DNA of 64,000 nt from Pigmentiphaga sp. Its GTDB lineage: Bacteria > Pseudomonadota > Gammaproteobacteria > Burkholderiales > Burkholderiaceae_B. The notes beneath the pieces were generated by a model. The model was not told the origin of the DNA, did no database searches, and saw nothing but the letters and a program-made list of their open reading frames with translations. Each line of letters starts with the position of its first letter. Within the stretch, counting starts at the first letter, position 1. The stretch covers positions 206,614 through 270,613 of the forward strand of contig NZ_JARYGM010000001.1 of assembly GCF_033795525.1 (NCBI RefSeq), in the 5' to 3' direction. Both the position numbers and the translations under genes were made by a program. Of the stretch, positions 2,459-49,576 are shown piece by piece.

Positions 2459-3490
2459 ATGAAGCTTACCCGTCTCAGTATCGCGACGTTCAACCTGTAC
2501 AACCTGAACGAGCCCGGCCGCCGCGTCTACACCGGCGAGGGCTGGAGCCAAGCCGAGTACCGCAAGAAAATCGACTGGACGGCCGGCCAGCTAACACTGC
2601 TCGATGCGGATGTATTCGGCTTTCAGGAATTGTGGCACAGGGATTCGCTTGCCCGTGCGTTGCAGGCGTCCGGCTTGGCCGGCACATACGACATGCTGGT
2701 ACCCGAAGACGCGGACGGTTCGCGGATCGTCTGCGCGGCCGTGGTCCGCAAGGGGCTGCTAGCCGGCGAGGCCGAATGGATCAGCGATTTTCCGGAGGCC
2801 TTCATGTTGCATTCGAGCGGGGACGACCCTCAGACGCCTCAGATTAGCGTCAATATCCGGGGGTTCTCCCGCCCCGTGTTGCATTTCACGATACAGCCGC
2901 GCGAGGATGGACCGCTGGTGCATGTTTATGTGTGCCATTTCAAATCCAAGGCCCCCACCCAGGTGTACAGAGAGGATTGGTACATCGACGCCAAATCCGC
3001 CTACGCGAAGCACGCCAAGAATCTGGGCGCGGCCCTCTCTACCATCCGCCGCACCGCCGAAGCGGCCGCGCTGCGCTTTTTGCTCAGCGAGCTGATGAAG
3101 GGCAACGACACGCCGGTAATCGTGCTGGGCGACATCAACGACGGCCAGCACAGCAACACCGCCAATATCCTCACCGATCAGCCCCGCTACCTGGTCGGGG
3201 ACTCCGAAGGAGGCGGCGACGTCGCGCTTTATACGGCGCAGACCCTGCAGGAATACCGGGACACGCGCGACGTGTACTACACCCACGTCTACCAGGACAT
3301 CCGGGAGTCACTCGATCACATCCTCGTCAGCCAGGAGTTCTACGACAATAGCCGCAAGCGCCTATGGATGTTCGACGGGCTGGTCATCAACAACGACCAT
3401 CTGGACTTCGACGACCACAAACGGCTAGGTGCCAACGACCATGGGATCGTCCGCGCCACGTTCAATTATCGTCCGAACAGCCAAAATTGA
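2459..3490 (+). CDS. endonuclease/exonuclease/phosphatase (EEP) family protein
   Basis: LSIATFNLYNLN..., ADVFGFQELW, VCHFKSK, VIVLGDINDG and DHILVS...NDHGIV are EEP catalytic motifs. AGGAG lies before ATG 2459. The upstream part of the 428-aa ORF overlaps the tRNA-His and was discarded. Confidence 0.8.
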   Translation: MKLTRLSIATFNLYNLNEPGRRVYTGEGWSQAEYRKKIDWTAGQLTLLDADVFGFQELWHRDSLARALQASGLAGTYDMLVPEDADGSRIVCAAVVRKGLLAGEAEWISDFPEAFMLHSSGDDPQTPQISVNIRGFSRPVLHFTIQPREDGPLVHVYVCHFKSKAPTQVYREDWYIDAKSAYAKHAKNLGAALSTIRRTAEAAALRFLLSELMKGNDTPVIVLGDINDGQHSNTANILTDQPRYLVGDSEGGGDVALYTAQTLQEYRDTRDVYYTHVYQDIRESLDHILVSQEFYDNSRKRLWMFDGLVINNDHLDFDDHKRLGANDHGIVRATFNYRPNSQN

Positions 3491-3553
3491 GCTGACGGCA
3501 CAAGCCGGGGGACCACGGTGCCAAGCCGCGGCCTCCGGCGATGCACAAAAGCA

Positions 3554-3582
3554 AAAAGCCCCTGCATGACAGGGGCTTTTTC
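3554..3582. terminator. bidirectional rho-independent terminator
   Basis: aaaaaGCCCCTGcatgaCAGGGGCttttt, with A/T runs on both sides. It sits between the EEP gene (+) and the csp gene (-). Confidence 0.75.
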
Positions 3583-3597
3583 TCGGCTGGGACCGCT

Positions 3598-3801
3598 TTA
3601 CAGCACGCGGATCTTCGAAGCCTGCGGGCCCTTGGGACCCTGGACGGCCTCGAAGCTGACCTTTTGGTTCTCGTACAGCGTCTTGCGCCCTTCCGCCTGG
3701 ATCTCGGAGAAATGAGCGAACAAATCCTTGCCTCCATCATCCGGCATGATGAAGCCGTATCCCTTGTCGTCGTTGAACCATTTAACGATGCCTGTGGCCA
3801 T
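3598..3801 (-). CDS. CspA-family cold-shock protein (67 aa)
   Basis: [34 protein letters not shown] carries the RNP1/RNP2 motifs. The ORF was trimmed to ATG 3801. Confidence 0.95.
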
Positions 3802-3934
3802 GATGCACTTCCTTCCTGAATATGTACTTGCCGCGAATACCACAAAACCGGAATCAAGGGTGGGCCGTGACCAATGGAGAGCCGACTTGCCGACCAAACC
3901 GCGTGTAGAACCCTAACCTGACACCTTGAAAATC

Positions 3935-3963
3935 ACTATGCGATGCAATGATCGCTTAGTCAA
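3935..3963 (-). promoter_or_regulatory. sigma70-type promoter candidate for the csp gene
   Basis: The minus strand reads TTGACT-17 nt-CATAGT. This would give a 5' UTR of about 125 nt, typical for cspA-type genes. Confidence 0.35.
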
Positions 3964-4183
3964 CTCGTTTTCGTTTCCGTCGGATACAACCTTATTACCC
4001 GAATACGACCGTTATTTGAATCGGGATTTTGCAAATATCGCCGGGTTAATGGCCAGATTAGGCAGGCTTGACTACAAAATGCGAAGCATAATGCGGCATA
4101 TCACCCACATAGTGGACAAAATCAACTATTTGCGCGAGGGTTTCCACGTAGATACTTGGATCTCAACCCTCTAAACCTATCGT

Positions 4184-35587: not shown

Positions 35588-36544
35588 CTAGTCTTCCAAC
35601 AAACCGAGTTCCTGGATCTTCTGCCGGTAGACGGCGTCCTGTTCGGCGATGAGCCGTTCGAATTCCGGCCTGCCAGATGCGTTGAGTTCGAAGCCCGCGG
35701 CGCGCGCCGCCTGCGAGACCTCTTTGCTGGCCAGGGCCTTGTTGACGATCGCATGAAGCCGTTCGGCCGTGGCGGACGGCACGCCAGCGGGGCCGAACAA
35801 CCCGGCCCACGGCACGATGTCCAGGGCGGGAACGCCCAGTTCGGCCAGCGTAGGCGTATCCGGCAGCAGTTCCGTGCGCCGCGATCCCATAACGGCCAAG
35901 GCGCGCAATCGGCCGTTCTCTACGTGGGGAACGCCCATGGTCGTTGCAACGATGGCTTGCACGCGGCCGGCAATGATTTCCTGGATAGCCGGCGGCTCCC
36001 CCTTGAAAGGAATGCGGGTCATCTCCAGCCCCGATTTCTGGCTGAGGTGGGCAAAGGCCATCAGGTTGGTGTTGGAGCCAGTTCCATAGTTGTACTGGCC
36101 CGGCTTGCGCTTGACCTGGGCGACGAACTCCGCGTAGTTGCGTGCCGGAAAGCTGGCGCTCGTGTACAGCAGATAGGTGTAGCGCCCGATGTCGGCGATG
36201 GCGGTAAAGTCCCGGCGGGCTTCATAAGGCGGCTGACGGCGGATGTGCGGGGCAATGGACAGATTGCCCGACGTAGCGAACAACAGCCGGCAACCATCGG
36301 GTTTGGCCTTGAGCACGTCGAGCGCCGCGATCTGGCCTTCGGCGCCGGGCTTGTTCTCCACGACGACGGCCGTGGTGAGCTGCGTCCCCATGTCCTTGGC
36401 CAGCGCACGGGCGATCGTATCGGTGGTCGACCCGGCCGGGAACGGCGCAACCAGCGTGGTGACGGGGCAGTCGGCCGCTTTCGCGGCAGGGGCGGCCGCG
36501 AGCAGGGACAGGACGGCGCTGCGGGCGAATCGGGCGATAAGCAT
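35588..36544 (-). CDS. Bug-family (TctC-like) substrate-binding protein
   Basis: Signal peptide, then TLVAPFPAGSTTDTIARALAKDM...VVENKPGAEGQIAA. Confidence 0.85.
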   Translation of the reverse strand: MLIARFARSAVLSLLAAAPAAKAADCPVTTLVAPFPAGSTTDTIARALAKDMGTQLTTAVVVENKPGAEGQIAALDVLKAKPDGCRLLFATSGNLSIAPHIRRQPPYEARRDFTAIADIGRYTYLLYTSASFPARNYAEFVAQVKRKPGQYNYGTGSNTNLMAFAHLSQKSGLEMTRIPFKGEPPAIQEIIAGRVQAIVATTMGVPHVENGRLRALAVMGSRRTELLPDTPTLAELGVPALDIVPWAGLFGPAGVPSATAERLHAIVNKALASKEVSQAARAAGFELNASGRPEFERLIAEQDAVYRQKIQELGLLED

Positions 36545-36570
36545 CGAAAGGTCTCCCAATCGGTTGGCGC

Positions 36571-37566
36571 TTAGAGTTGTTCGATCTTTGCGCTCTTGAC
36601 GATGCGCGACCACAGTTCGATCTCTTCCTTCTGGCGGGCGCGGAGCGTAGCGGCTCCGCCGGTCGGGACTTCCGCGCCGCGGTCAGTGAAGAACTTGCGA
36701 GTGGCCGGGTCATCGGCGATCTTGGCGAATAACTGTTCGAGCTTGGCAAGCCGGGCCGCAGGAACCCCGGCCGGCGCAACGGCCGCGACCCAGGTAGAAG
36801 CCACGAAATCGGGAAGGCCGGCCTCGGCGGTGGTCGGCACATTGGGCAGGAGCGCCAGCCGTTCCTTGGAGGCCACAGCCAGCGCCTGAGCCGTCCCGCC
36901 TTGCACCGACCCCAGCGCGCTCGTCGCGTCGACGATCGAGAAATCGACCTCCTTGCCGATAAGCGCATTGAGCGCCGCGCCCACGCCCTTGTAGGGAATC
37001 GCGCGAGCGGTAAAGGAGGCCTTTTCCTGGAGCAGTTCGCCCATCAGCTGGTAGCTCGTCGCACCGGCGGAGTAGTTCAGCGAATCGGGTTTGGCGCGGC
37101 CCACCCTCACCAGCGTCTCGATGCTGGAACGCTCGGAGCCCGCAGGCACGGCGATGACGCTCGGCACCGAAGCCATCATGCCCAATGCCGCCAGATCCTT
37201 GAGCGGGTCGTAAGGGAGGGCGCGGTACAGCGCGACGTTGGTCGCCAGGATGGAGGTCGTTCCTATCAGGATCGTGTAGCCGTCGGGCCGCGCGTTCAGG
37301 ACGGCGCCCACACCTATGAGCCCATTCCCGCCCGCTCTGTTCTCCACGACGACCGACTGGCCGGTTTCCTCGCCCAACCGCATGGCGTAATAGCGGGCGG
37401 CAATGTCGGTGATGCTGCCCGGCACGAACGGGACGACGAACTTGATCGCATGGGAGGGAAAATCGTCGGCCGCTGCCGTACCGCTCGCGGCGCTAACCGC
37501 TATCGCGAAAGCAAGGGCCAGCATGCGAGAGGGCAAACCGGCGCGAGGGCGGTGGGAAAAGAACAT
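36571..37566 (-). CDS. Bug-family (TctC-like) substrate-binding protein
   Basis: Signal peptide, then IKFVVPFVPGSITDIAARYYAMRL...VVENRAGGNGLIG. GGAGAC SD present. Confidence 0.85.
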   Translation of the reverse strand: MFFSHRPRAGLPSRMLALAFAIAVSAASGTAAADDFPSHAIKFVVPFVPGSITDIAARYYAMRLGEETGQSVVVENRAGGNGLIGVGAVLNARPDGYTILIGTTSILATNVALYRALPYDPLKDLAALGMMASVPSVIAVPAGSERSSIETLVRVGRAKPDSLNYSAGATSYQLMGELLQEKASFTARAIPYKGVGAALNALIGKEVDFSIVDATSALGSVQGGTAQALAVASKERLALLPNVPTTAEAGLPDFVASTWVAAVAPAGVPAARLAKLEQLFAKIADDPATRKFFTDRGAEVPTGGAATLRARQKEEIELWSRIVKSAKIEQL

Positions 37567-37885
37567 GATCGTCTCCTGTGCGGCTGCCGACGCAGCCATA
37601 GCCTTGTTGTGAGGCTATGGTAGGAGGACGGTCTATGCTCGTCCAACACTTAAATTCGCACGATTGAGACCTGATGAGTCTTTATTCTGAACGACTGATA
37701 AGGACCGACGGCAGTACATCGCCCAGTTCCGACATGGCCTCCGCTAATGACAATAGTTAGTGCGCATCGCCGATAGGGAAGGAATTCGAAGCTATTCGCC
37801 TTGATGAGCGACGACCGGCTTTTGCGTGAGCTTAGCGCCTAAGGCAAACTCTGTGCGATGCAAAGCACCGCGAACGGGAGACCCC

Positions 37886-38697
37886 ATGTCCAAGCCACCG
37901 GATCTCGATGCATATTTCGGCCGTATCGGCTATGTCGGCGCCGCTACCCCTACGGCCGACACGCTGCGCAACCTCGTCCTGCACCATGTGCGGACCATCG
38001 CCTTCGAAAGCGTCGACCCTTTCCTGGGCCGGCCGGTCAGCCTGGCACTCGCCGACATCGAGCAGAAACTGGTCCACGGCCGCCGTGGCGGTTACTGCTA
38101 CGAGCACAATGGCTTGTTCGGCGCGGTGCTGCGTGCGCTGGGTTTCAAGGTGACGACGCTGTCGGCGCGAGTCTTGTGGGGGCAGCCAGAAGACGCTACC
38201 GTACCGCGCGCCCACATGCTCTTGAAGGTGGAGCTGGGCGATGCGCCGCTGATCGTGGACGTCGGGTTCGGCGGCCAGACCCCCACGTGCCCGCTAAGGC
38301 TGCACACCGATCTTCCCCAGCCCACGCCCCACGGCCATTGCCGACTGCTGTCCGACGAGCAGGGCTGGCGGCTGCAGGCCGATGTGCGAGGTGAGTGGCG
38401 CACCCTGTACCGGTTCGGCATCGAGCCGGATTTTCCGCCCGATTACGAGATAGCCAATTACTACCTGTCCACGCATCCGGAATCGCCTTTCGTATCGAAC
38501 CTGATCGCAGCACGCGCCACCGCCCAAGGCCGGCTGGCCTGCACAACCGGGACTACACGCGTTACGGCGCGGATGGCAGCGCCGTGCGCCGCAGGCTGGA
38601 AAGCGCCGCAGAGATCAGGGAAGTGCTGCGCCGCGAATTCCTGGTGGAACTGCCGCATACCGCCGAAGGCGACCGTAAACTGGACGCGCTTCCCTAG
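37886..38697 (+). pseudogene. arylamine N-acetyltransferase (NAT), frameshifted
   Basis: DLDAYFGRIGY, RGGYCYEHNGLF (catalytic Cys) and LIVDVGFGG lie in one frame up to ...ATAQGRLA at about 38539. The expected C-terminus LHNRDYTRYGADGS...LVELPH continues in the -1 frame to the TAG at 38695-38697. Confidence 0.75.
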
Positions 38698-38809
38698 GGG
38701 GCAGCGTCGCTCCCACGTCAGCCGGCCTATAATCCTACGATCGGGCGGCAGCACCCTGTGCGCCGAACACGCCGGCGCCACGCCGCCGGCCACTACCATT
38801 CAAGGCCCC

Positions 38810-39196
38810 ATGGAGACCACCCACCGGCTGCGTCGATGTCTCGCCTGGCTGGCGCTTTGCGCCATGTGCCTAGGGGTCTTCGCGCCGGTTGTTTCGCAGT
38901 GGTTGGCGAATGCGCGAACCGTCGTATGGGTCCACATCTGCAGCGAGGCCGGCGCAGCGCCGGTGGCGATCGCCGTATCGCACGGACACTCGCCGAAGGC
39001 CCCGGCCGTTGGGGATGGCTACTGCCCTTATTGCACCCTGGCGCAGCATTGGCCGTTCGCGCCGCCAATGTCCGCCGGCTCGATCCCGCCTCCCCAGGGC
39101 GCTACGCTGGCCTATGCCGGCTCGGCGCTTCCTTCCCCGTCCCTTGCTCCGCGCTGGCACGCGCACGCACCGCGCGCGCCGCCCCTTCTTTCCTGA
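38810..39196 (+). CDS. cruR: DUF2946-family CruR-like copper-responsive upstream ORF
   Basis: N-terminal hydrophobic helix, CPYC at 39023-39034, and a C-terminus ...HAPRAPPLLS* with RAPP at 39173-39184. It precedes a TonB receptor and a PepSY gene. Confidence 0.65.
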   Translation: METTHRLRRCLAWLALCAMCLGVFAPVVSQWLANARTVVWVHICSEAGAAPVAIAVSHGHSPKAPAVGDGYCPYCTLAQHWPFAPPMSAGSIPPPQGATLAYAGSALPSPSLAPRWHAHAPRAPPLLS

Positions 39197-39300
39197 TCCG
39201 TCCCGATACGCCCATGGTGCGGCCTGCGTGGCGGCCTCCATGGCGCCAGCTTGCGCGCGCGTGATGCGCGCGGGGTAGTCATTCGCTTGAGGAGGGGAAA

Positions 39301-39723
39301 GTGCATCCGGCCTGGACGGTGATGCGCGGACTCGCAGGTAGACACTGGCATTGCGCCGCCTGGTGGCTGGCGCTGGCGGTGTTCGTCCTCAAGGCCACGA
39401 TTCCGCAGGGATTCATGCCGGGCAAAGCCGACGGCCGGGAAGCGTTCGTCGTCCTGTGTTCGGCGGGTGGCCCGCTGCCGTGGCGAATAGCGCTTCCGGG
39501 CGGGGACACCGGGGACGATGGTCCGACCCCGGTGCATGTTCTGGATCTGGCTTGCCCGTTTGCAGCGGCCGCAACGCCGGGACTGCTTGCCGGCCCGGGC
39601 CCAGGTCTGACGGGCAGCCTGCGCGTCGCCTACCTGCTTCCAGCTCCAGCGTTTACGTCGCAGTGCGCCGTCCAGCCGGCCCGTGCGCCACTGGGCGCGC
39701 GGGCGCCGCCGCATTCCGCGTGA
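39301..39723 (+). CDS. second DUF2946-like ORF ending in a RAPP motif
   Basis: GTG start after GAGGAGGGG. TM helix AAWWLALAVFVLKA and the LKATIPQGFMPG...VVLCSAGG pattern. C-terminus ...GARAPPHSA* with RAPP at 39700-39711. Confidence 0.55.
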   Translation: MHPAWTVMRGLAGRHWHCAAWWLALAVFVLKATIPQGFMPGKADGREAFVVLCSAGGPLPWRIALPGGDTGDDGPTPVHVLDLACPFAAAATPGLLAGPGPGLTGSLRVAYLLPAPAFTSQCAVQPARAPLGARAPPHSA

Positions 39724-39789
39724 AGACCCGAGACCGGGCCGGGCGCGTTGCCTGGCCCTCTTCCCACGATCTTCTACCGGAATGCTGCC

Positions 39790-41940
39790 ATGAAGCTCTC
39801 TTTTCGCGCCGCGGCGCGCCGCGCGCCTTCGGTGCGCGCCTCCCTGTACTGGCTTTGCCTGCCGCCCTTGGTTCTCATTGCCCAAGCGGGCTGGGCCGAG
39901 GATACCCCTGTCACGCTCCCTTCGATTTCGGTCACGGCGGAGCCCGAAACACCGCTGGACCAGCCTGCCTCGACGGGATCGAATCTGCCGTTGACGCGGC
40001 GGGAGACGCCAGCCAGTGTCGATGCGATCACGCGTGCCCAGCTCGACGAACGCGGCGATACCCGGCTGACCGACGCCATCATCCGCGCGCCAGGCTTCAG
40101 TTCTATCGGCCACCCTGGCAACGGCGGCTCCGGGCTGTCGGTACGCGGCTTTACCGATGCAGCATCGGTAATGCAGCTCTACGACGGCATACGCCAATAC
40201 GGACAGATTGGCGTGACGTTTCCGTTCGATACGTGGGCGGTGGACCGTATCGAGGTGCTGCGCGGGCCGGCTTCGGTCATCTACGGCGAAGGCGCGATCG
40301 GCGGCGTGGTGAACGTGATTCCGAAGAAACCGCGCCGCGGACCAGTCGAGAACCAGATCCGCGCCACGCTCGGAACGGATGCGACGCGGGGGCTGGCTTT
40401 TGGCAGCGGCGGCTCGATCGACGAGCAGTTCTCGTATCGTTTCGATATCAGCGGCGACCGGTCGGCCAACTGGGTGGATCGGGGCGATTCGCGCAACCTG
40501 GCGATGTCGGGGGCGCTGCAGTGGGAGCCATCGCCCGACTTCCGCCTCAAGCTGAGCCATGCCCAGGGCTGGCAGCGGCCGATGCGGTATTTCGGCACGC
40601 CGCTGGTGGACGGGCGGCTGGATGATGCCTTGCGCGGGAAGAACTACAACGTGGATGACGCGCTGATCCGCTACAACGACCAGTGGACCGAGCTGTCGGC
40701 GGAATGGACGCCGAACGATGCGACCACGGTGCGCAGCCGCCTCTACCGGATCGGCAGCCGCCGCCACTGGCGCAATGCGGAGTACTACGATTACCTGCCG
40801 GCCACCGGCCTCGTCCAGCGCTCGTCCTACACCGAGATCCTGCATGACCAGTGGGAGATCGGCAACACCACCGATGCGACGTTCAAAGGCCGCCTGCTGG
40901 GCCTGCCCAGCCAGGTATCGGTAGGGGTATCGCTCAGCCACAGCGCGTTCCGGCACACCAACAATTCGCCTTATGCGGGCACGTCGGAGGTCGACCCTTA
41001 CGACGTCGATCCTGGCCACTTCGTGAACGTCGCGGGCACCTCTCCGCGGTATCGGAACGGGGCTTGGCAATACGCGGTTTTCGGCGAAAACCGGTTGGCG
41101 CTGACGGATAAGTGGTCGGTGCTGGCCGGGATCCGTTATGACCATGCGGAGGTCGCGCGCCGCGACCTGGTCCTGGGCCAGGAGACGCTGTCGCGTTCGT
41201 TTTCCCACGTCGGCTGGCGGGCAGGTACGGTGTACGACCTGACGCCGGACCTGGCCCTCTATGGCCAGTATGCCGAGGCCGCCGACCCTATCGGCGCGCT
41301 GTTGATGCTGTCTCCCTCCAACGGCCGCTTCGACCTGGCCAGCGGCCGGCAGGTGGAGCTGGGCATCAAGCAGACGTTCTGGGGCGGCAAGGGCGACTTC
41401 ACACTGGCGGGCTATCACATCGTCAAGAAGAATCTGGTGACCGCCGACGTGGCCGATCCCTCGGTCAGCGTTCAAGTCGGCCAACAATCGTCGCGTGGCA
41501 TCGAAGCCACCCTCGGCCTGGAATTGGCCTCCGGCTGGCGGCTGGACGCCAACGCCGCGCTGCTGCGTGCCCGCTACGACGACTTCACCGAATCGGCGGG
41601 CGGCGTTGCGGTTTCGCGCGCCGGCAACACCCCTGTCAACGTCCCGGAACGTCAGGCCAGCATGTGGCTGAGCTGGCGCTTCCTGCCTGCCTGGACTGCC
41701 AGCGCCGGCATGCGCTACGTGGGGCGGCGCTTTGCCGACCGCGCCAATACGTTGGAATTGCCGTCATACACGGTGGCGGACCTGTCGCTGCAATGGCAAC
41801 CGCGGCGCGACACGACCATCTCATTGCGCGGCTTCAACGTATTCGACCGCGACTATGTAACCACCGCCTATTACCACCCCACGCAATGGCTCTATGGCAG
41901 CGGCCGGCGCGTGGAGCTGACCGTGCTCCATCGATTCTAG
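39790..41940 (+). CDS. TonB-dependent outer-membrane receptor (copper/siderophore type, BfrG-like)
   Basis: Signal peptide, TonB-box-like TPVTLPSISVTA, plug motifs (VDAITRAQLDERGD, GLSVRGF, IEVLRGPASVIYGEGAIGGVVNVI) and a C-terminal ...VELTVLHRF. Confidence 0.9.
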   Translation: MKLSFRAAARRAPSVRASLYWLCLPPLVLIAQAGWAEDTPVTLPSISVTAEPETPLDQPASTGSNLPLTRRETPASVDAITRAQLDERGDTRLTDAIIRAPGFSSIGHPGNGGSGLSVRGFTDAASVMQLYDGIRQYGQIGVTFPFDTWAVDRIEVLRGPASVIYGEGAIGGVVNVIPKKPRRGPVENQIRATLGTDATRGLAFGSGGSIDEQFSYRFDISGDRSANWVDRGDSRNLAMSGALQWEPSPDFRLKLSHAQGWQRPMRYFGTPLVDGRLDDALRGKNYNVDDALIRYNDQWTELSAEWTPNDATTVRSRLYRIGSRRHWRNAEYYDYLPATGLVQRSSYTEILHDQWEIGNTTDATFKGRLLGLPSQVSVGVSLSHSAFRHTNNSPYAGTSEVDPYDVDPGHFVNVAGTSPRYRNGAWQYAVFGENRLALTDKWSVLAGIRYDHAEVARRDLVLGQETLSRSFSHVGWRAGTVYDLTPDLALYGQYAEAADPIGALLMLSPSNGRFDLASGRQVELGIKQTFWGGKGDFTLAGYHIVKKNLVTADVADPSVSVQVGQQSSRGIEATLGLELASGWRLDANAALLRARYDDFTESAGGVAVSRAGNTPVNVPERQASMWLSWRFLPAWTASAGMRYVGRRFADRANTLELPSYTVADLSLQWQPRRDTTISLRGFNVFDRDYVTTAYYHPTQWLYGSGRRVELTVLHRF

Positions 41941-41949
41941 GAGACGCCT

Positions 41950-43512
41950 ATGCTGACGCGATCGCGTGGCAAGCGCGCCATTTACCTGATCCACCGATGG
42001 ACCGGCATCGCCGCCTGCCTGCTGATGGTGGCTTGGTTCGCCAGCGGCATGGTCATGCTGTTCGTAGGCTACCCCAAGCTCACGCCTTGGGAACGGCTGG
42101 GACACTTGCCCGACCTGCCGGCTGGTCCATGCTGGGCGCCGGTGGAACGGGCGCTGGCCGCAAGCGCCGATCCGGCCGCCGTCACCGAAATCATGCTGAC
42201 AACGGTGCGCGGCCGGCCGACTCTGCGCCTGCGGGAAGGCGACGGCCGCTATCTCGCCGTCGATGCGCGGACGGCCTCGCCCATGCCCCCCGCGGATGCA
42301 GGCGACGCGGTCGAGAGCGCACGCGCCTATCTGCCCGGCGTAGGCGCCCGCTACCTCGGCTCGGTAGACGAGGACCGGTGGACGCATTCAGCCACGCTGA
42401 ATCCCCATCGTCCGCTGCACAAGGTCCAGATGAACGACCCTGCCAGCACGCTACTTTATGTGTCATCGGCCACGGGGGAAGTCGTGCTGGACGCGCCCCG
42501 CGCGCAACGCCTGTGGAACTACGCCGGCGCATGGCTCCATTGGCTCTATATGTTCCGAGACCGGCCCGTCGACCCGGGATGGAGCTGGCTGGTCATCTCG
42601 CTCTCCGCAATGGGGACCATGGTGTCGGTGACCGGCACGGCAGCCGGTCTTTGGCGCTGGCGTTTCCGCGGCACCTACAAGTCGGGCGCCCGCTCGCCTT
42701 ATCGCGACGCTTGGCTGAGATGGCACCACATCGCCGGCCTTGTGTTTGCGGGGATCACCTTTGCGTGGATCTTCAGCGGACTGATGTCGATGAACCCGGC
42801 CGGCCTGTTCCACCCCTCGGGCCTGCGGCCGGACCTCGCCGCCTATCGCGGTGCGACGCCCGGCCAGTCGCGGCCCACGCTGGACCTGACTGAGGTTACC
42901 GCGGCCTTGTGGGAGCAAGGGTTCGAGCCGCGCGAAATCGAATGGCGGGTATTGGGGGGCCGGCCCTACTTGTTGGCCCGCGACGGCGCCGGCCACACCC
43001 GCCTGGTCACCGGCGATGCCGGCGCAATGAGAATTCTTGGACAATGGTCGCCACCCCAGCTGAAATACGCCGCCACGCGCTTGCTTGCCGCGCCCATCGC
43101 CGCCTATCGCCGGCTCGACGACTACGATGCCTACTACTATGGCCGGGAGCCGGAAGCCATGATGGGCGCGAGCGAACGCCGGCTGCCAGTCTGGCGTGCG
43201 CAGTTTGCAGACGCCAGCAAGACCTGGGTCTATCTGGATCCGTATACCGGCGACCCGGCATTGAGCGTGGACGGGCGGCAGCGCCTGGGCCGATGGCTAT
43301 TCAATTTCCTTCACAGCTGGGACCTGCCGCCCATGCTCGCGGCCGGCGTCTGGCGGGAGGCGGTGCTGATCCTGATGAGTCTGGGCGGCCTGGCCTTGAG
43401 CGTGACCGGGACTGTCATCGCGTACCGGCGGGTACGGATGGCGGCGCGCCGCCCTGGGCGGGGCCGGACTAGCCTTGCGGCGCCGCCGGCACGGTATCCA
43501 CCGCCGCAATAA
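41950..43512 (+). CDS. PepSY-associated TM-helix protein (PiuB-like)
   Basis: IYLIHRWTGIAACLLMVAWFASGMVML, repeated HxW motifs (LHWLYMF, LRWHHIAG, NFLHSWD) and four TM segments. Confidence 0.85.
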   Translation: MLTRSRGKRAIYLIHRWTGIAACLLMVAWFASGMVMLFVGYPKLTPWERLGHLPDLPAGPCWAPVERALAASADPAAVTEIMLTTVRGRPTLRLREGDGRYLAVDARTASPMPPADAGDAVESARAYLPGVGARYLGSVDEDRWTHSATLNPHRPLHKVQMNDPASTLLYVSSATGEVVLDAPRAQRLWNYAGAWLHWLYMFRDRPVDPGWSWLVISLSAMGTMVSVTGTAAGLWRWRFRGTYKSGARSPYRDAWLRWHHIAGLVFAGITFAWIFSGLMSMNPAGLFHPSGLRPDLAAYRGATPGQSRPTLDLTEVTAALWEQGFEPREIEWRVLGGRPYLLARDGAGHTRLVTGDAGAMRILGQWSPPQLKYAATRLLAAPIAAYRRLDDYDAYYYGREPEAMMGASERRLPVWRAQFADASKTWVYLDPYTGDPALSVDGRQRLGRWLFNFLHSWDLPPMLAAGVWREAVLILMSLGGLALSVTGTVIAYRRVRMAARRPGRGRTSLAAPPARYPPPQ

Positions 43513-43981
43513 GGCCGTCCTCGGTGTGATGCACCACGAGGATGCGCGCGCTTTCCATCCGGGCCAGCAGTTCGGCCGACACGCCGAAGCCCGTGGCCAA
43601 CCGCTCTGGCTTCATGGGAGCCGGGGCGCTGCGCCGGTCCAGGCCGCGAAAGCGCCGCCAGTTGTACCAGGCCCAGGCGAATAGGATCAGCGCGTTGATG
43701 ACGGCCAGCGCGGCATACACAGCCAAGGTCCGCATCGTCGGGAATGCGCCGGACCAGAACGGCGCGTCCAGCCCCGCCATCCGCCCTTCAACGACTGCGA
43801 TCATGCCGCGCGCGAACAGATAGAGGAACACGATCCACGCGATCGCCGTCAATACGACGTCCAGAAGGTAGCGCAGCCGCGTCCGCTTGGTCGTGATGAC
43901 CATGGTCGAGGCGTCGATCGCCACCCGGGGCTCGCCGGCGGCCGGCGCATCCAGCTTGGTGGGAGGAGGAACGAGACTCAT
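43469..43981 (-). CDS. pgaD: poly-beta-1,6-N-acetylglucosamine biosynthesis protein PgaD
   Basis: Two TM helices plus a WYNWRRF motif. ATGA-coupled to pgaC. The 3' end overlaps the PepSY gene by 44 nt. Confidence 0.8.
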   Translation of the reverse strand: MSLVPPPTKLDAPAAGEPRVAIDASTMVITTKRTRLRYLLDVVLTAIAWIVFLYLFARGMIAVVEGRMAGLDAPFWSGAFPTMRTLAVYAALAVINALILFAWAWYNWRRFRGLDRRSAPAPMKPERLATGFGVSAELLARMESARILVVHHTEDGLIAAVDTVPAAPQG

Positions 43982-45234
43982 GCTTTCTCCAGCGATTTGA
44001 TACCCCGGTCAGGACTGATCCAGCGCGCGCGCCGCCGCCGGATCTTGAGCATGACCTTGGGAAAGCTGACGAGCGATGTGAAGAGGCTGAGCATCCAATA
44101 GGCCAGCGGATACCACACCACCCAGTACAGCGCGCCGGCCAGGCGAGGCTCGTAGCGCCGGTCGATGAAAATACTGAGGGCGAACTGCAGCAGGCATGCC
44201 ATGGCCAGCACCAACCCGGTGAAGGCCGGCGGCATCAAGGTCTCGATGTGGATATGCGGCGGCAACTCGATGAACTTGCCCAGGGCCCACAGGACGATGG
44301 ACATCGCGAACGCGAAGGCCCAGAACGTCGAAAGGCAGAACTCCGCGACCAGCGGCCACAACCGCCGGTGGCGCCACGTCCATATCGAACGCACGTTCTT
44401 GAGGAAGACTTCCGCCCCGCCCTGCGCCCAGCGCAGCCGCTGCTTCCACAACCCGCGCAGGGTCTCAGGCATCAGGATCCAGCACAGCGCCCGGGGCTCG
44501 TAGAAAATGGACCAGTGATCACGCTGCAGTTTCCAGCTGATGTCGATGTCCTCGGTCACCATGTCGAGGCTCCAGTACCCGACGCGGTCCAGTGCCTGCC
44601 GCCGGAACGCCGCCACCACGCCGGACACGGTGAACACCTGTCCGTACACACGCTGGGTCCGCTTGATCAGGCCGATGATGGACGAGAACTCGCCCACCTG
44701 CACGCGCCCGATCAGCGTCGACCGCGTACGCACGCGCGGATTGCCGGTGACCGCGCCGACCCGCGGATGCGCGATCAGCGGATGGACCAGATAGGACACC
44801 GCGTCCGGCGCCAGCACGGCATCCCCGTCTATGCATACCAGGTAGTCGCTGCGGGCCGCCAGCGCGTCCAGCATCGGCGCCGTCCCGTCCTTGGAGCCGT
44901 CATTGATGGCAATGACTTCGAGGTTCGGATAGTTCTGGCCCAATGCCGCCAGTACGGTTTCTTCGCCGTTCTCTTCTTCGTTGAAGCAGGGAATGAGAAT
45001 GGTGACCAGCGGATTGCCCGGCAGCTCGGGCACGGCACCCGGCTCGTCCCAACGCCAGCGCCTCTCCAGGCGCAGCCAGAAGTACAGGCCGCCCGACATC
45101 CACAGCCCCGACATGAACAGCGGGTAGAAGAAGACGAAGTCGAGCAGGAAGTCCCCGGTCACGGCAAGAGCGATACAGAACGGCAGGATCAAGACCGCGG
45201 CCAGGATGAAGGAAGCTAGGATTCGGTCTTTCAT
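43978..45234 (-). CDS. pgaC: PNAG synthase PgaC (GT2), with an internal in-frame gap of about 27 aa
   Basis: [59 protein letters not shown] and QRLRWAQGG. The segment containing the N-x-GKA-x-ALN motif is absent. Confidence 0.9.
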   Translation of the reverse strand: [418 protein letters not shown]

Positions 45235-47243
45235 CGGTAGGGATACCAGGCGTTGGACAACACGGGACGGATGGTCTCCAGGCGCGGCTGATCCTGAGAG
45301 AAATCGTCGGGGTAATAGCCGAAATGGACAGCACCACGGCGCTGCAGGCGCTTCATCCAATCGGCCAGCAATACGGAGTCGATGGGCGCGCCCGCTCCGC
45401 GCCAGTCGCGGCTCTGCAATTCGAAGACGGTCTTGCCGAGCGCGCCAGGGCGCTTGGCGACCTCATCGACCAAGCGATCGAGCCAGGCGCTGGCTTGCGA
45501 GGACGGCACTTCTTCCATGAACGGCATTGCCATGGGCGCAGTCCAGTCGTAGGCGGCGAGGAAATCGTCGAGGTTCTGCGCGAACCACGCTTCGGACTCG
45601 GGATTCAGGATGGGACCGGCGAAGATGTTCCGGGCGGTCAGCACCTGCGGTCCGCGCACCGCCCGCACGCGTGCCGTCAACTCGGCGGTGAAGTCCACGA
45701 GGTAGCGGCTCTTGAAGCGGGTCCATTTCCACAAGGTCGTGGCATCGGCGCGCAAGGCCTCGATCGAGTCCGGTAGGCCCGCAGCACGGTAAGCCGCCAG
45801 CGCCGGCGCGCTCGCATCCTCGTAGTCGGACAGGACGGCGTCGTCGTGGAACAGGATGCCGTCGAACACCGCGTAGCGCGCCAGGTCTTCATACAGTTCG
45901 CCTATCCTGGCCCGCACCTGGGGCGAGAATGGCGACAGCCGGCGGTACTGGTCCGGATCGATGGCGGCGCCTACCTGCGGATTCCATCGCGTCACCCGGG
46001 GCAGAGAGGGATCGAGGTCGAACGAGAGCACCGGCATCCAGGCGAATATCTGCACGTGGGCACGATTGCGCAGTTGCCAGGCCGCTCGGTTGAACAGGTC
46101 GGCCCGCATGGGGAGCACGCGATTGGGGAAGTACACCGATTTCACCAGCCCGTCGCCCACGGGATCGGCGTAGGCCTGCAGGAACACGGCCGAGATCTGC
46201 ATGTCGGCAATGCGTTGCACGAGCGCTCCGAGATTCCGGTCGGTCTGGGCCGGGTCGGGATCGTAGACATAGTCCAGGTCGACATGCGCGACGCGCATCT
46301 TGTCGAGCTCCTGCACGTCGACGATCGCGCTCGCAACGTTGCGCAGCGAGGCTTCTCCGGACAACAGCACGCGCGGGGTCGACATCAGGCGGTCGATGCG
46401 GCCCAGGCCGCTTTCCAGCGTGAGTGCCATGTCGTAGCCGTTATCCCCGACGATCTTCAGCGCCACGCCGCTGGCGGCGCCGTAGGGCCAGACCCACACC
46501 CGGGGCGGCTTGCCCGTCACGCGGCGGATCTTCTCGGTAATGCGCGCCGTGTCGCGGGCCATGCGCTCCTGGTACTGGGCCGGCGATTCGTATTTCGCGG
46601 CTACGGGGTCGTAGACCAACGTGGCCGCCGCAGGCTGTTCGCTGCCCTGCGGGTTGGCCTGCACCCCGTAATGCAGGTTGTCGGTATGGGCGCCGATCTC
46701 GACCACCCCGGAACGCGCAAGCTCGGCGACCTGCTCCCAGGTGAGGAATTTGTCGCGCGGCGCAGGCTGGCCGCCGAAGTTCACCTCCTGATCGGCAGGC
46801 GTATCGATCCAGGCGCCGACGGGCGCGAGCACCGCGGGCCAGCCATAGGCCTTGAGTACGGGAAACACCCGCGTATAAAAGCTGCTGTAGCCGTCATCGA
46901 AGCTCAGCAGGACCGCCCGCGGCGGCAACGGCGTCCCGCCCCGGCGGGCTTCCAGGATCTGGTCCACCGATACCGCGCGGTAGCCGTTCTCGCGCAGCCA
47001 GGCCAGCTGCGCAATGAGTTGGTCGGTACGCACCGACAGGTAGGTCTGGTCGGGCTCGCTGTCCTCGACGTCGTGATAGGCCAGGGTCAGCAGCTGGTTT
47101 TTCGGCCAGGGCTGGTCCGCGGCCGCGACCGGCCGCTCGGCAGGGGGAACGAACAGGGGAATGTCCTTGGCACAACCGGCCAGCACGGCGCAGGCCGTGA
47201 TCAGGAACCAGCCCAGTATCAGGCGGAAACGAATTCTGCACAT
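45231..47243 (-). CDS. pgaB: PNAG N-deacetylase lipoprotein PgaB
   Basis: Lipobox LAGC, LSFDDGYSSFYTRVFPVLKAYGWPAVLAPVG and GAHTDNLHYG. About 670 aa, as in E. coli PgaB. Confidence 0.9.
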   Translation of the reverse strand: MCRIRFRLILGWFLITACAVLAGCAKDIPLFVPPAERPVAAADQPWPKNQLLTLAYHDVEDSEPDQTYLSVRTDQLIAQLAWLRENGYRAVSVDQILEARRGGTPLPPRAVLLSFDDGYSSFYTRVFPVLKAYGWPAVLAPVGAWIDTPADQEVNFGGQPAPRDKFLTWEQVAELARSGVVEIGAHTDNLHYGVQANPQGSEQPAAATLVYDPVAAKYESPAQYQERMARDTARITEKIRRVTGKPPRVWVWPYGAASGVALKIVGDNGYDMALTLESGLGRIDRLMSTPRVLLSGEASLRNVASAIVDVQELDKMRVAHVDLDYVYDPDPAQTDRNLGALVQRIADMQISAVFLQAYADPVGDGLVKSVYFPNRVLPMRADLFNRAAWQLRNRAHVQIFAWMPVLSFDLDPSLPRVTRWNPQVGAAIDPDQYRRLSPFSPQVRARIGELYEDLARYAVFDGILFHDDAVLSDYEDASAPALAAYRAAGLPDSIEALRADATTLWKWTRFKSRYLVDFTAELTARVRAVRGPQVLTARNIFAGPILNPESEAWFAQNLDDFLAAYDWTAPMAMPFMEEVPSSQASAWLDRLVDEVAKRPGALGKTVFELQSRDWRGAGAPIDSVLLADWMKRLQRRGAVHFGYYPDDFSQDQPRLETIRPVLSNAWYPYR

Positions 47244-47254
47244 TGCTGCTTCTC

Positions 47255-49576
47255 TCAGAACCGGAAGATCACGTCGGCGACAATGCGCCATTCGTGTTCG
47301 CGGGTGCCGTCGTAAGGGCGCGTGATGCCCGATACGGTGGCGCCCACCTCGAAGACGTCATTGGTGCGGTAGCGCTGTCCATAGCTGATCAGCCCGACCG
47401 CCCCCGTGCCATAGTCGCGCTGGGTGTAGCTTCCCGCAGCCACGGTGGCCTCCTGTTCCCACACCGTCTCGTAGCGGCGGTGCAGGATATGGGTGACCGT
47501 CACCGACGGCAGGAACACCAGATCGCGGCTAGGGTTGAAGTACGGCGCGTCGGTCCGCGTATTGCGCGATGCCGACAGCTCCAGGCCGAGGTCGACCTTC
47601 AGATGCGGGCGGGTATAAAGACGCTCGCTTCCGGTCAGCGCGGCGGACAACCGGTTATTGCCGTCGCTGAAGCGCGAGGGCGTGAGTGCCAGCGTCCACT
47701 CGCGCCGCTCGCTCTGGCGCCATCGCACATAGCCCTGAAGCGCGTTGGACGAAATGTTGTGGCTCAGGGCGCGCAGCGGCGTATCACGCGAACGCAGGCT
47801 GGCCTCGCCGCCGATCTGCCAGTGGTCGTCGATGTCGTACGCGACCGAGGCACGTGCGCCCTGCTTGGCGCCGAAACCATAGTGGTTGACGGACAGCTCG
47901 GCTTCGGCCGTCAGGTCGCGGCCCCGATACTCGAGGCCGCCCCGCAGCCAGCGCGATGTGCCCCGGCCCTCGATGAACTTGCCGGTGGCATAGCCGCCGC
48001 CGCCGAAGGCGCGCCAGTTGTATTGCAGCGGCGCGGAGTACAGGACCGAGTCGAAGCCATAGCTGCCGCTGCCGGCCACCGGGCTGTCCGATGAGAAGCC
48101 ACGATAGGCCGAGGTTCGCCATTCCGCCTTGTTGTGGACTTGCCAGACACGCGCCAGCCGCTGCGCCCTTAGATTCTCGGGAAAACGCGCCATGGTGTCT
48201 GCGCTGAGCAATTCGGCCTGCCGCCATTCCTGCAGGTCCATCGCGGTGAATCCCTGGCCGGATTCCACGTCCAGGCCCCGCGGCGCCAGCGCCTCGGCCA
48301 GCTTGTATTCCGATTCGGCACGGCGCGGCCATCCGCGGCCCAGGTAGACCGTAGCAAGCGAGGTGCGCAGGCCTGAATTGTCGGGGGCGAGGTCGACCCA
48401 CTCGCTCAGGCGCTTTTCGGCCTCGACGGTATCGTCGCCATAGTAGTAGGCCATGGCGGCCGTCTCGTCGGCCAGCAAGCGCGGATCGTTGGGCAGACGC
48501 TCGGGATTCCCGACCAGGTAGCGCCAAGTCGAGTAGCCGGCCGGCGCACCATCGGCCGATGCCAGCGCGGGGCCAAAGGATTCTTCCTCTATGTGCGCAT
48601 ACAGCAGCCCGGTTTCATTGGCCAGGCGCATTTCCTCGTCCAGCCCCTTGCCGCCGTTCCTGACGAGCCGGTCATAGATTTCGCGGGCCGCTTCCGGACG
48701 CCGCAGGTACAGATAAGCCGAAGCCACGTCACCCAGGGCGTAATCCGGTACCTCCACGCCTTCGGCGCGCAGCGCCTCGTATTCGGCCACGACTTCGCCC
48801 ATGCGGACTCGCGCGTGCAGCGCCTGCAGGCGGTCGATGCGGGCACGCCGCACATCGGCGGCGGCCTCTTCGCCCAGCGCCTGCCAGGCAGGAATCAATT
48901 GCGCGTAACGTGCCAGGGCGCGGTCGGCCACTGCGAACCGTTCCGCTTCGCCACGCGATGGCAGCGACGAAAGGCGCGCCAGTTCCGCGGCTGCGTCGCC
49001 CTCGAGCTGCCGCATCTGCGACTCGTTCAACAACCCCGGGTGCTGCCGCGCCAGGCGCAGCGCCGGTTCGGGCATTGCGGCACGCTGCCAGGAAAGAATG
49101 CGTTCGCGCACGACGTAAGGACGCTGCGGCGCAAGTTCGTAGGCTCTGTCGACTTCGCTCAGGGCTGCATAGGGCCCCTCGGCCCGCAGGTACGCATAGC
49201 CGAGCGCAAGGTGATTGTCAGGGTCGGCCGGATTGCGCTGGACCAGGGCCCGGCCCCGGCGCACCGCTTCCTCGGCCTGGCCCGCGTCGGCCAGCGTCAT
49301 GACCTCGCCCTGTTCGAACGAAGCAACGCCGGGATAGCGCCTCGCCCCTTCGCGAAAAAGATCGAGGGCCGCATCCCAACGCTGCGCATCCCGGTGCGAA
49401 CGTGCCTGCGTCAAGAGCGGCTCGTAGGAGGCCTGCTGGGCATGGACCATGGGAGGAGCGGCCAATAGCAAGGCCAAGGAAACGCTAAGTGCGGCACGCC
49501 GAGGCAGATCAGGAAATCTGCGCGCACGACAGCCCGCCGATACAGCCGCAATGGGCTCGTCGGGTAAGAACGACAT
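47255..49576 (-). CDS. pgaA: PNAG export porin PgaA (TPR plus beta-barrel)
   Basis: Signal peptide ...PPMVHA|QQ, N-terminal TPR-like repeats, a C-terminal barrel ending ...ADVIFRF, and its position upstream of pgaBCD. Confidence 0.85.
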   Translation of the reverse strand: MSFLPDEPIAAVSAGCRARRFPDLPRRAALSVSLALLLAAPPMVHAQQASYEPLLTQARSHRDAQRWDAALDLFREGARRYPGVASFEQGEVMTLADAGQAEEAVRRGRALVQRNPADPDNHLALGYAYLRAEGPYAALSEVDRAYELAPQRPYVVRERILSWQRAAMPEPALRLARQHPGLLNESQMRQLEGDAAAELARLSSLPSRGEAERFAVADRALARYAQLIPAWQALGEEAAADVRRARIDRLQALHARVRMGEVVAEYEALRAEGVEVPDYALGDVASAYLYLRRPEAAREIYDRLVRNGGKGLDEEMRLANETGLLYAHIEEESFGPALASADGAPAGYSTWRYLVGNPERLPNDPRLLADETAAMAYYYGDDTVEAEKRLSEWVDLAPDNSGLRTSLATVYLGRGWPRRAESEYKLAEALAPRGLDVESGQGFTAMDLQEWRQAELLSADTMARFPENLRAQRLARVWQVHNKAEWRTSAYRGFSSDSPVAGSGSYGFDSVLYSAPLQYNWRAFGGGGYATGKFIEGRGTSRWLRGGLEYRGRDLTAEAELSVNHYGFGAKQGARASVAYDIDDHWQIGGEASLRSRDTPLRALSHNISSNALQGYVRWRQSERREWTLALTPSRFSDGNNRLSAALTGSERLYTRPHLKVDLGLELSASRNTRTDAPYFNPSRDLVFLPSVTVTHILHRRYETVWEQEATVAAGSYTQRDYGTGAVGLISYGQRYRTNDVFEVGATVSGITRPYDGTREHEWRIVADVIFRF

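Follow-up and report, generated by a model that had tools for sequence, protein, structure and literature searches.

The question raised by this locus is how the gene of a putative copper importer might be controlled when two open reading frames (ORFs), each ending in a ribosome arrest motif, lie ahead of it on the same leader. The DNA analyzed, hereafter called the window, is a 64,000-nucleotide (nt) stretch of Pigmentiphaga sp., contig NZ_JARYGM010000001.1. A first-pass annotation had read positions 38810-39196 as a CruR-type, copper-sensing upstream ORF (uORF) that heads a TonB-dependent receptor/PepSY operon. We found that the sequence supports a CruR-type attenuator at this position (uORF1) and that the interval 39197-39789, which had been taken as empty, holds a second RAPP-terminated ORF at 39301-39723 (uORF2). 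The locus is probably a copper-acquisition operon made up of uORF1 (CruR type, with CXXC), uORF2 (single-Cys DUF2946 type), a crtA-like importer gene, and a crpH-like PepSY_TM gene, in which control is exerted by ribosome arrest after transcription initiation and a second arrest module acts in series with the first.

The CruR-type peptide and its operon

The 128-amino-acid (aa) ORF of the first-pass annotation agreed exactly with the sequence and its translation, with an ATG at 38810 and a TGA at 39194-39196. Its elements are the following.

38810-39196, plus strand: uORF1, a CruR-type DUF2946 leader peptide of 128 aa, with an N-terminal hydrophobic helix, a semi-conserved Cys44, CPYC, and RAPP followed by LLS
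39023-39034, plus strand: CPYC (CXXC), the putative Cu-binding motif of uORF1, 46 residues before RAPP
39173-39184, plus strand: RAPP, the presumed arrest motif of uORF1 by homology to CruR of Bordetella pertussis (CruR_Bp), three codons ahead of the stop

The N terminus is basic and is followed by a hydrophobic run, LAWLALCAMCLGVFAPVV, which was read directly from the translation and corresponds to aa 11-28, the helix that had been described. CPYC occupies aa 72-75 and RAPP aa 122-125, after which come LLS and the stop codon. When the protein was compared with Pfam, it gave a clear match to PF11162 (DUF2946) of 57.4 bits, with a cut-off of 23.7 and an E value of 3.1e-15, over profile positions 1 to 117 of 117. 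In an alignment of 24 orthologues taken from the CrtA-type loci of 80 species-representative genomes, residues C72, C75, R122, P124, and P125 were invariant and C44 was nearly so. The CXXC-RAPP interval was 46 residues in uORF1, 45 in CruR_Bp, and 42 to 46 in the CrtA-locus orthologues, so that both motifs and their spacing are kept. Neither of the sequence-level outcomes that the first-pass annotation had named as refuting its reading, lack of a DUF2946 match and loss of CXXC and RAPP from orthologues, was borne out. The orthologue in Pigmentiphaga sp. NML080357 is 55% identical, with a ratio of nonsynonymous to synonymous substitution rates (dN/dS) of 0.27. Of the 564 ORFs in the window (six-frame, stop to stop, at least 60 aa), only uORF1 and the adjacent uORF2 had R[AG]PP within the last ~10 residues. 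Because so few ORFs end in this way, the DUF2946 match spans the full profile, and CXXC and RAPP are invariant in the 24 orthologues, the features of uORF1 are not due to chance.

The model for this peptide is cruR (bp2923) of B. pertussis, a DUF2946 uORF with CXXC at residues 90 to 93 and RAPP at residues 139 to 142, 45 residues apart and with RAPP three residues from the end (PMC9426467). There, Cu is sensed through CXXC, which relieves the arrest at RAPP; RAPP mutants terminate constitutively, CXXC mutants lose the copper response, and a change of the spacing by five residues impairs regulation (PMC9426467). The copper response depends on the CXXC pair, whereas the semi-conserved Cys is dispensable. 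Rho terminates transcription in the 162-nt spacer after cruR, and the Rho utilization (rut) region lies in a C>G bubble with which cruR ends (PMC9426467). In the PURE system, CruR_Bp was shown to arrest while its two Pro codons occupied the P and A sites (PMC12992588), which matches the structural mechanism of RAPP peptides. The bp2923(cruR)-bfrG-bp2921 mechanism was described accurately in the first-pass annotation and is that of Roy et al. 2022 (PMC9426467). BfrG has since been renamed CrtA, a copper importer with an essential His358, and the PepSY_TM protein Bp2921 has been named CrpH (Hachmi et al. 2026, PMC12914433, PMC13038864). BP2923 was absent from the few matches that word-indexed searches returned, whether uORF1 or the CXXC alignment was the query; the comparison of uORF1 with CruR_Bp is made through the Pfam model, the published residue numbers, and the 24 orthologues. 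Taken on its own, uORF1 is a further member of the known and recently characterized CruR family, and by homology its system would be expected to respond to copper, to arrest ribosomes, and to depend on Rho.

The two downstream genes were also as first described, and Pfam identified both products.

39790-41940, plus strand: CrtA/BfrG-type TonB-dependent transporter (TBDT), putatively for copper, 716 aa, with Plug and beta-barrel domains
41950-43512, plus strand: putative CrpH-type PepSY_TM protein, 520 aa, Pfam PepSY_TM at 54.7 bits

The best match of the receptor in the PDB was 9rvq_A (E = 3.5e-102), compared with 1.3e-40 for FhuA; 9RVQ is CrtA_Bp. Its His352 (40843-40845) aligns with the essential His358 of CrtA_Bp in a gap-free block. 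The PepSY_TM gene begins 9 nt 3' of the receptor gene, and every PepSY_TM protein that shares an operon with a CrtA orthologue belongs to the CrpH cluster (PMC13038864). The assignment of the operon to the CruR-CrtA-CrpH type holds at the level of sequence. uORF1, uORF2, the TBDT gene, and the PepSY_TM gene lie on one strand in that order, with 104 nt between uORF1 and uORF2 and 593 nt between uORF1 and the receptor gene. The layout differs from that of B. pertussis in that an additional RAPP uORF without CXXC precedes the receptor, so that uORF1 is not directly ahead of it.

A second leader peptide and its subfamily

The additional uORF has its own ribosome-binding site and its own set of motifs.

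39289-39297, plus strand: Shine-Dalgarno (SD) sequence GAGGAGGGG of uORF2; the SD and the GTGCAT start are kept in Pigmentiphaga sp. NML080357
39301-39723, plus strand: uORF2, a single-Cys (CPFA-type) DUF2946 leader peptide of 140 aa with a GTG start, a transmembrane (TM) helix, P35-x-G37-x-M39, Cys53, Cys85-Pro-Phe-Ala, and RAPP followed by HSA
39553-39564, plus strand: CPFA of uORF2, in the position of CXXC, 45 residues before RAPP
39700-39711, plus strand: RAPP, the putative arrest motif of uORF2 (aa 134-137), then HSA, three codons ahead of the stop

The C terminus reads ...GARAPPHSA*. CXXC is not present in uORF2, where CPFA stands in its place and the subfamily consensus is C-[PA]-[FY]-[AGS]; this makes uORF2 a DUF2946 relative and not a canonical CruR. 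In Pigmentiphaga sp. NML080357, an orthologue of 141 aa occupies the same position with the same start, stop, and motifs, at 56% identity and a dN/dS of 0.41. A third close relative, P0004, lies on a 558-nt contig without gene context. A library-wide search with a profile built from uORF2 and its orthologue returned 203 relatives, and C-x-[FY]-[AGS] together with R[AG]PP was present in 115 of 152 proteins, nearly all of them from that search. Among these proteins, the distance from the Cys motif to R[AG]PP was 42 to 47 residues, with a mode of 45, and the tail after R[AG]PP was mostly 3 residues. Among 80 diverse members of the uORF2 family, P35, G37, M39, C53, C85, R134, P136, and P137 were invariant, and 74 of 80 aligned relatives matched PF11162. 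When the uORF2 family was compared with the CXXC type by hhalign, the two aligned over 126 columns with a probability of 97.7% and an E value of 1.4e-12, and the columns of the membrane helix, the first Cys, CXXC/CPFA, and RAPP coincided. These profile comparisons place uORF2, as a divergent member, in a large DUF2946 subfamily of the single-Cys type. An origin of uORF2 by recent duplication of uORF1 was ruled out, as the two are 26% identical and each belongs to a separate, broad subfamily.

The single-Cys type was also found alone. It is the sole leader before CrtA-type receptors in B. petrii, B. tumulicola, and Verticiella and before PepSY_TM-TBDT pairs in the Burkholderia cepacia complex, and in metagenome contigs it stands ahead of either a PepSY_TM gene alone or a TBDT gene. 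The occurrence of this type as the only uORF in other species argues that it is a regulator on its own. In the B. cepacia complex (contigs L038-L053 and L069), the order is single-Cys uORF, PepSY_TM, and TBDT (in L038, for example, 1792-2277, 2520-3983, and ~4001 onward), so that the order of PepSY_TM and transporter is inverted relative to Bordetella and Pigmentiphaga.

In both subfamilies, the segment between the CXXC or Cys motif and RAPP is poorly conserved. This bears on whether the DUF2946 products might be stable, chaperone-like copper-handling proteins of the periplasm or membrane and not mainly regulators. Both uORFs encode a putative N-terminal export or TM segment, Pseudomonas fitness data show cofitness of DUF2946 with a copper receptor, and CutF, the leader peptide of Rhodobacter capsulatus cutFOG (Ozturk et al. 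2023, PMC9973294; bioRxiv 10.1101/2025.02.05.636593), was first conjectured to be a chaperone. However, CruR_Bp is barely translated and undetectable, acts only in cis without complementation in trans, and has a dispensable signal peptide, and the strict distance from the Cys motif to the terminal RAPP in both subfamilies, across a poorly conserved intervening region, is the property of a nascent-chain device. We regard a chaperone role as very unlikely.

If both peptides are nascent-chain regulators, they could still be tuned to different signals. In uORF2, Cys53, Cys85, and Met39 could plausibly form a Cu(I) ligand set. The ligand sets would then differ between the peptides, CXXC in one and Cys-Cys-Met with PxGFM at the end of the membrane helix in the other, and the two could provide a two-input response in which cytoplasmic Cu(I) is distinguished from periplasmic or membrane copper, or copper from another metal, or in which redox state is one of the signals. 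Clusters of the DUF2946/CutF-like family do have differing Cys/His motifs and non-copper neighbours, and CutF needs to be exported whereas sensing by CruR does not depend on export. Conversely, both types head CrtA/PepSY_TM operons in different species, which fits a common copper signal, and a separate signal for each peptide seems to us rather unlikely.

The presence of both types on one leader is rare. Of 81 CrtA loci (the window plus 80 others), two uORFs were found in 2, the window and Pigmentiphaga sp. NML080357, one was found in 56, and none in 23. When metagenomes were scanned for further tandem loci, only the same Pigmentiphaga lineage and two distant single-Cys ORFs were returned. Metagenome contig L096 carries two single-Cys DUF2946 uORFs on the same strand, at 263-748 (CAFS...RGPP) and 1107-1511 (CAFA...RGPP), with an 80-aa ORF between them and a DUF2244 gene after them, which indicates that paired DUF2946 genes recur outside the Pigmentiphaga lineage. 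No description of serial DUF2946 or RAPP uORFs was found in the literature searched. The nearest homologues of the receptor (71-72% identity), from Bordetella sp. LUAb4, Achromobacter sp. HZ34, and A. aloeverae, are preceded by a third type of leader, HCCSGGC...RGPP, that has LPHCCSGGCAMAG and RPRGPP followed by two residues (L011 ~3200-3639, L012 ~3220-3673, and L013 ~2960-3375). A third leader type ahead of such close CrtA homologues indicates that sensor modules have been swapped freely in front of the same transporter.

The leader RNA, the limits of the unit, and a proposed relay

The leader was examined for signals through which two arrests might act on one gene, and the following elements were recorded.

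38728-38733, plus strand: TATAAT, candidate -10 box of the operon leader; CTATAATC is kept in Pigmentiphaga sp. NML080357, and no -35 matches it
38960-39260, plus strand: C>G bubble 1, a candidate rut region, over the 3' half of uORF1 and into the beginning of the spacer
39560-39900, plus strand: C>G bubble 2, from the 3' part of uORF2 across the 66-nt spacer to the 5' end of the receptor gene
39711-39726, plus strand: 5' arm of a predicted helix, formed by the last codons and stop of uORF2 in the minimum free energy (MFE) fold; a ribosome arrested at RAPP would cover it
39769-39785, plus strand: 3' arm of the predicted helix, with the likely receptor SD GGAA at 39779-39782; CGATCTTCTAYCGGAAYGCT is kept in Pigmentiphaga sp. 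NML080357

In bubble 1, C rises to 49% with G at 24% (78-nt windows), and the peak C-G difference of +0.26 exceeds the 99th percentile of the whole window (0.205); the corresponding peak in Pigmentiphaga sp. NML080357 is +0.27. One C>G bubble accompanies each uORF both here and in that species. The leader ahead of uORF1 (38700-38830) is itself skewed toward C over G, with C-G up to +0.23, and could be an additional Rho entry site when uORF1 is untranslated. A consensus scan of the leader revealed no terminator-like sites that would indicate an intrinsic terminator, and an Rfam scan gave no element, only a sub-threshold match to a viral frameshift element that was taken as chance. The likely receptor SD lies 7 nt ahead of the ATG. 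Its duplex with the tail of uORF2 has a predicted energy of -23.1 kcal/mol, and no better partner occurs within 330 nt; of 573 background windows, 6 were as good. Pigmentiphaga sp. NML080357 has the same predicted helix, in which a compensatory change replaces one A-U pair by G-C, and there 39 of 574 background windows were as good. A comparable tail/SD pairing is present in Verticiella. Since a ribosome with Pro136 and Pro137 in its P and A sites covers the 5' arm, arrest on uORF2 might free the receptor SD, a step that we put forward tentatively.

The upstream limit of the unit required attention because the first acetyltransferase frame stays open into uORF1, and gene callers accordingly report a 436-aa "Acetyltransf_2 + DUF2946" fusion in GCA_034285035.1, an assembly that carries an identical copy of uORF2 and the same gene layout. 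An exact look-up of uORF1 was empty for the same reason, as callers fuse it to the acetyltransferase. Read at face value, the annotation would make DUF2946 the C terminus of a 436-aa N-acetyltransferase and 39301-39723 a spurious ORF of a GC-rich genome; the callers' product, the lack of a Pfam family for the 140-aa ORF, and the absence of any stop between the upstream frame and uORF1 (open from 37826 to 39196) speak for this. Yet the acetyltransferase is frameshifted, with Pfam positions 3-200 in one frame and 196-236 in another that ends at 38697. In Pigmentiphaga sp. NML080357, the uORF1 orthologue has an unrelated AraC-type gene upstream but the same ATG and the same CTATAATC box, and the 128-aa ORF is therefore a real unit. 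uORF2, for its part, has orthologues, is under purifying selection, and has more than 100 family members. The frameshift, the NML080357 locus, and the conservation of uORF2 refute the fusion together with the spurious ORF, which we consider hardly credible. The arylamine N-acetyltransferase itself (37886-38697, with the frameshift at about 38530-38545) is either a pseudogene or the product of a homopolymer sequencing error.

Between this gene and uORF1 lies TATAAT, which was read at 38728-38733 as described in the first-pass annotation. A consensus scan of the leader detected no complete sigma-70 promoter, and conservation is the sole support for TATAAT as a -10 box. The leader has no operator-like palindrome, in agreement with the earlier remark that no metal-regulator operator was evident. 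In contig L002 (1-5215), a Pigmentiphaga-like metagenome contig, phage-type integrase and AlpA genes take the place of the usual upstream genes, identity to the reference locus restarts ~295 nt ahead of the uORF1 ATG, and the leader is intact; this replacement delimits the regulatory unit. Farther upstream, two neighbouring TctC/Bug-family periplasmic receptor genes, typical of Alcaligenaceae, occupy 35588-37599 on the minus strand, in keeping with an origin of the window from an Alcaligenaceae bacterium close to Pigmentiphaga. At the other end of the operon, the PepSY_TM gene runs 44 nt into the convergent pgaD (43469-43512), a junction that is kept in Pigmentiphaga sp. NML080357, and pgaD belongs to a pgaD-pgaC-pgaB (poly-N-acetylglucosamine) cluster at 43469-47291 on the minus strand.

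From these elements, we propose the following sequence of events. When copper is scarce, a ribosome would arrest at the RAPP of uORF1 and shield the C-rich rut region, and RNA polymerase would read on. Copper bound by the nascent CPYC, just outside the exit tunnel, would release the arrest and allow the ribosome to terminate; after its release, Rho would stop transcription, and a Rho event after uORF1 would act upstream of uORF2. uORF2, with its own strong SD, its own RAPP, and Cys53/Cys85/Met39 instead of CXXC, would be a second checkpoint in series. Its arrest would protect the transcript again and might also open the helix that pairs its last codons with the receptor ribosome-binding site. 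The receptor would then be made only if both arrests hold, giving a tighter or two-input OFF switch. A serial nascent-chain relay of this form, in which the CXXC peptide and the Cys/Cys/Met peptide differ in ligand specificity, affinity, or compartment and the second arrest both blocks Rho and unmasks the receptor ribosome-binding site, is a speculative elaboration of the operon model, and we hold it with low confidence.

Several points weigh against the operon model with two arrest modules. With only the first Cys of the CXXC pair, uORF2 may sense copper differently or not at all, a doubt that arises because CruR_Bp needs the CXXC pair whereas its semi-conserved Cys, the equivalent of Cys53, is dispensable. 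uORF2 itself fell below any Pfam threshold, with no match to PF11162 at an E value of 1 or less, and its orthologue P0002 had none at an E value of 10 or less. The AlphaFold2 model of uORF2 was of low confidence (pLDDT 70, pTM 0.36) and too weak to judge the proximity of Cys53, Cys85, and Met39. Bubble 2 is modest in the window (C-G up to ~+0.13) and strong in Pigmentiphaga sp. NML080357 (+0.23). The SD-masking helix is drawn from two lineages, is moderately above background, becomes weaker with a longer arm, and was not seen in the single-Cys loci of B. petrii or B. tumulicola. A parallel masking of the uORF2 SD by the stall-site codons of uORF1 appeared in MFE folds, but background windows were as good (85 of 567 and 62 of 566), and it was dropped.

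A rival reading is that only one of the two peptides is a working sensor: either uORF2 controls crtA and uORF1 is redundant or decaying, or copper is read by uORF1 while uORF2 arrests constitutively, blind to any signal, and relays readthrough and translation initiation. In favor of this reading, uORF2 is the uORF next to the receptor gene, and leaders of its type act by themselves in B. petrii, B. tumulicola, Verticiella, and Burkholderia; uORF2 lacks the CXXC pair that CruR_Bp needs for copper sensing; and the tandem is confined to 2 of 81 loci. Set against this, both uORFs keep every residue that is invariant in their families, both are under similar purifying selection (dN/dS 0.27 and 0.41) over ~45% protein divergence, and a separate C>G bubble accompanies each of them in the two species. 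In addition, the invariance of C53, C85, and M39 throughout the subfamily argues for ligand binding and hence against a signal-blind uORF2. We judge a single sensor to be improbable, and continue to favor the operon model with two arrest modules in series.

Significance and comparison with known systems

The CruR family has already been published together with its mechanism and its connection to CrtA and CrpH, and Pigmentiphaga entries are included in the published census. What this locus adds is a natural tandem, in which a canonical CXXC sensor and a putative single-Cys sensor stand on one leader before one gene. It provides a test bed for whether the CXXC pair is truly needed for copper-triggered release of arrest, can show what the widespread CPFA-type peptides sense, and can test whether serial arrest peptides sharpen or gate a response. 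If the relay is true, a two-input, ultrasensitive decision that copper is really scarce would be made wholly by stalled ribosomes, and the large CPFA subfamily would be evidence that metal-responsive release of arrest does not depend on the "invariant" CXXC of CruR. The locus also illustrates an annotation trap, in that leader peptides of GC-rich genomes are joined to pseudogenes upstream of them or receive no family name.

Compared to the B. pertussis system, uORF1 shares with CruR_Bp the DUF2946 family, a hydrophobic N-terminal helix that may be export-like, a semi-conserved Cys, CXXC, and RAPP three residues from the end, and the locus shares the 3' C>G bubble, the lack of an intrinsic terminator, and an operon with a CrtA-type receptor (with the His kept) and a PepSY_TM protein that is probably of the CrpH type. 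uORF1 differs in its length, 128 aa instead of 145 aa, and in its distance from the receptor gene, 593 nt instead of 162 nt. Also unlike B. pertussis, the spacer holds a RAPP uORF without CXXC, and a pairing is predicted between the likely receptor SD and the tail of that uORF.

CutF is likewise a DUF2946-like leader with a Cys motif and a C-terminal proline stall. Its stalling melts a stem-loop over the ribosome-binding site of the next gene, and the same step, following SecM/CutF logic, is predicted for the uORF2-receptor junction. However, CutF has CXXXC and PPP where uORF2 has CPFA and RAPP, copper induces its stalling rather than relieving it, export and EF-P are needed, and the gene that it controls encodes a detoxifying oxidase and not an importer.

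With ApdA, ApdP, and SecM-type peptides (PMC7897499, PMC10951233, PMC12992588), the uORFs share a RAPP near the C terminus of a small exported or membrane peptide upstream of a regulated gene, and the first-pass annotation was right to identify RAPP as the arrest module of ApdA/ApdP-type peptides. These peptides monitor Sec/YidC activity and are released by translocon pulling, whereas the release proposed here is by metal binding. The genes downstream of the uORFs encode a TBDT and a PepSY_TM protein and not Sec/YidC, and there is no homology beyond the arrest motif, which places the uORFs outside the ApdA/ApdP group.

Tandem T-boxes and tandem riboswitches are two cis-acting termination switches in series that yield a multiplicative response, sharper and less leaky, or a two-input response. 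These switches sense via RNA, whereas uORF1 and uORF2 are nascent peptides.

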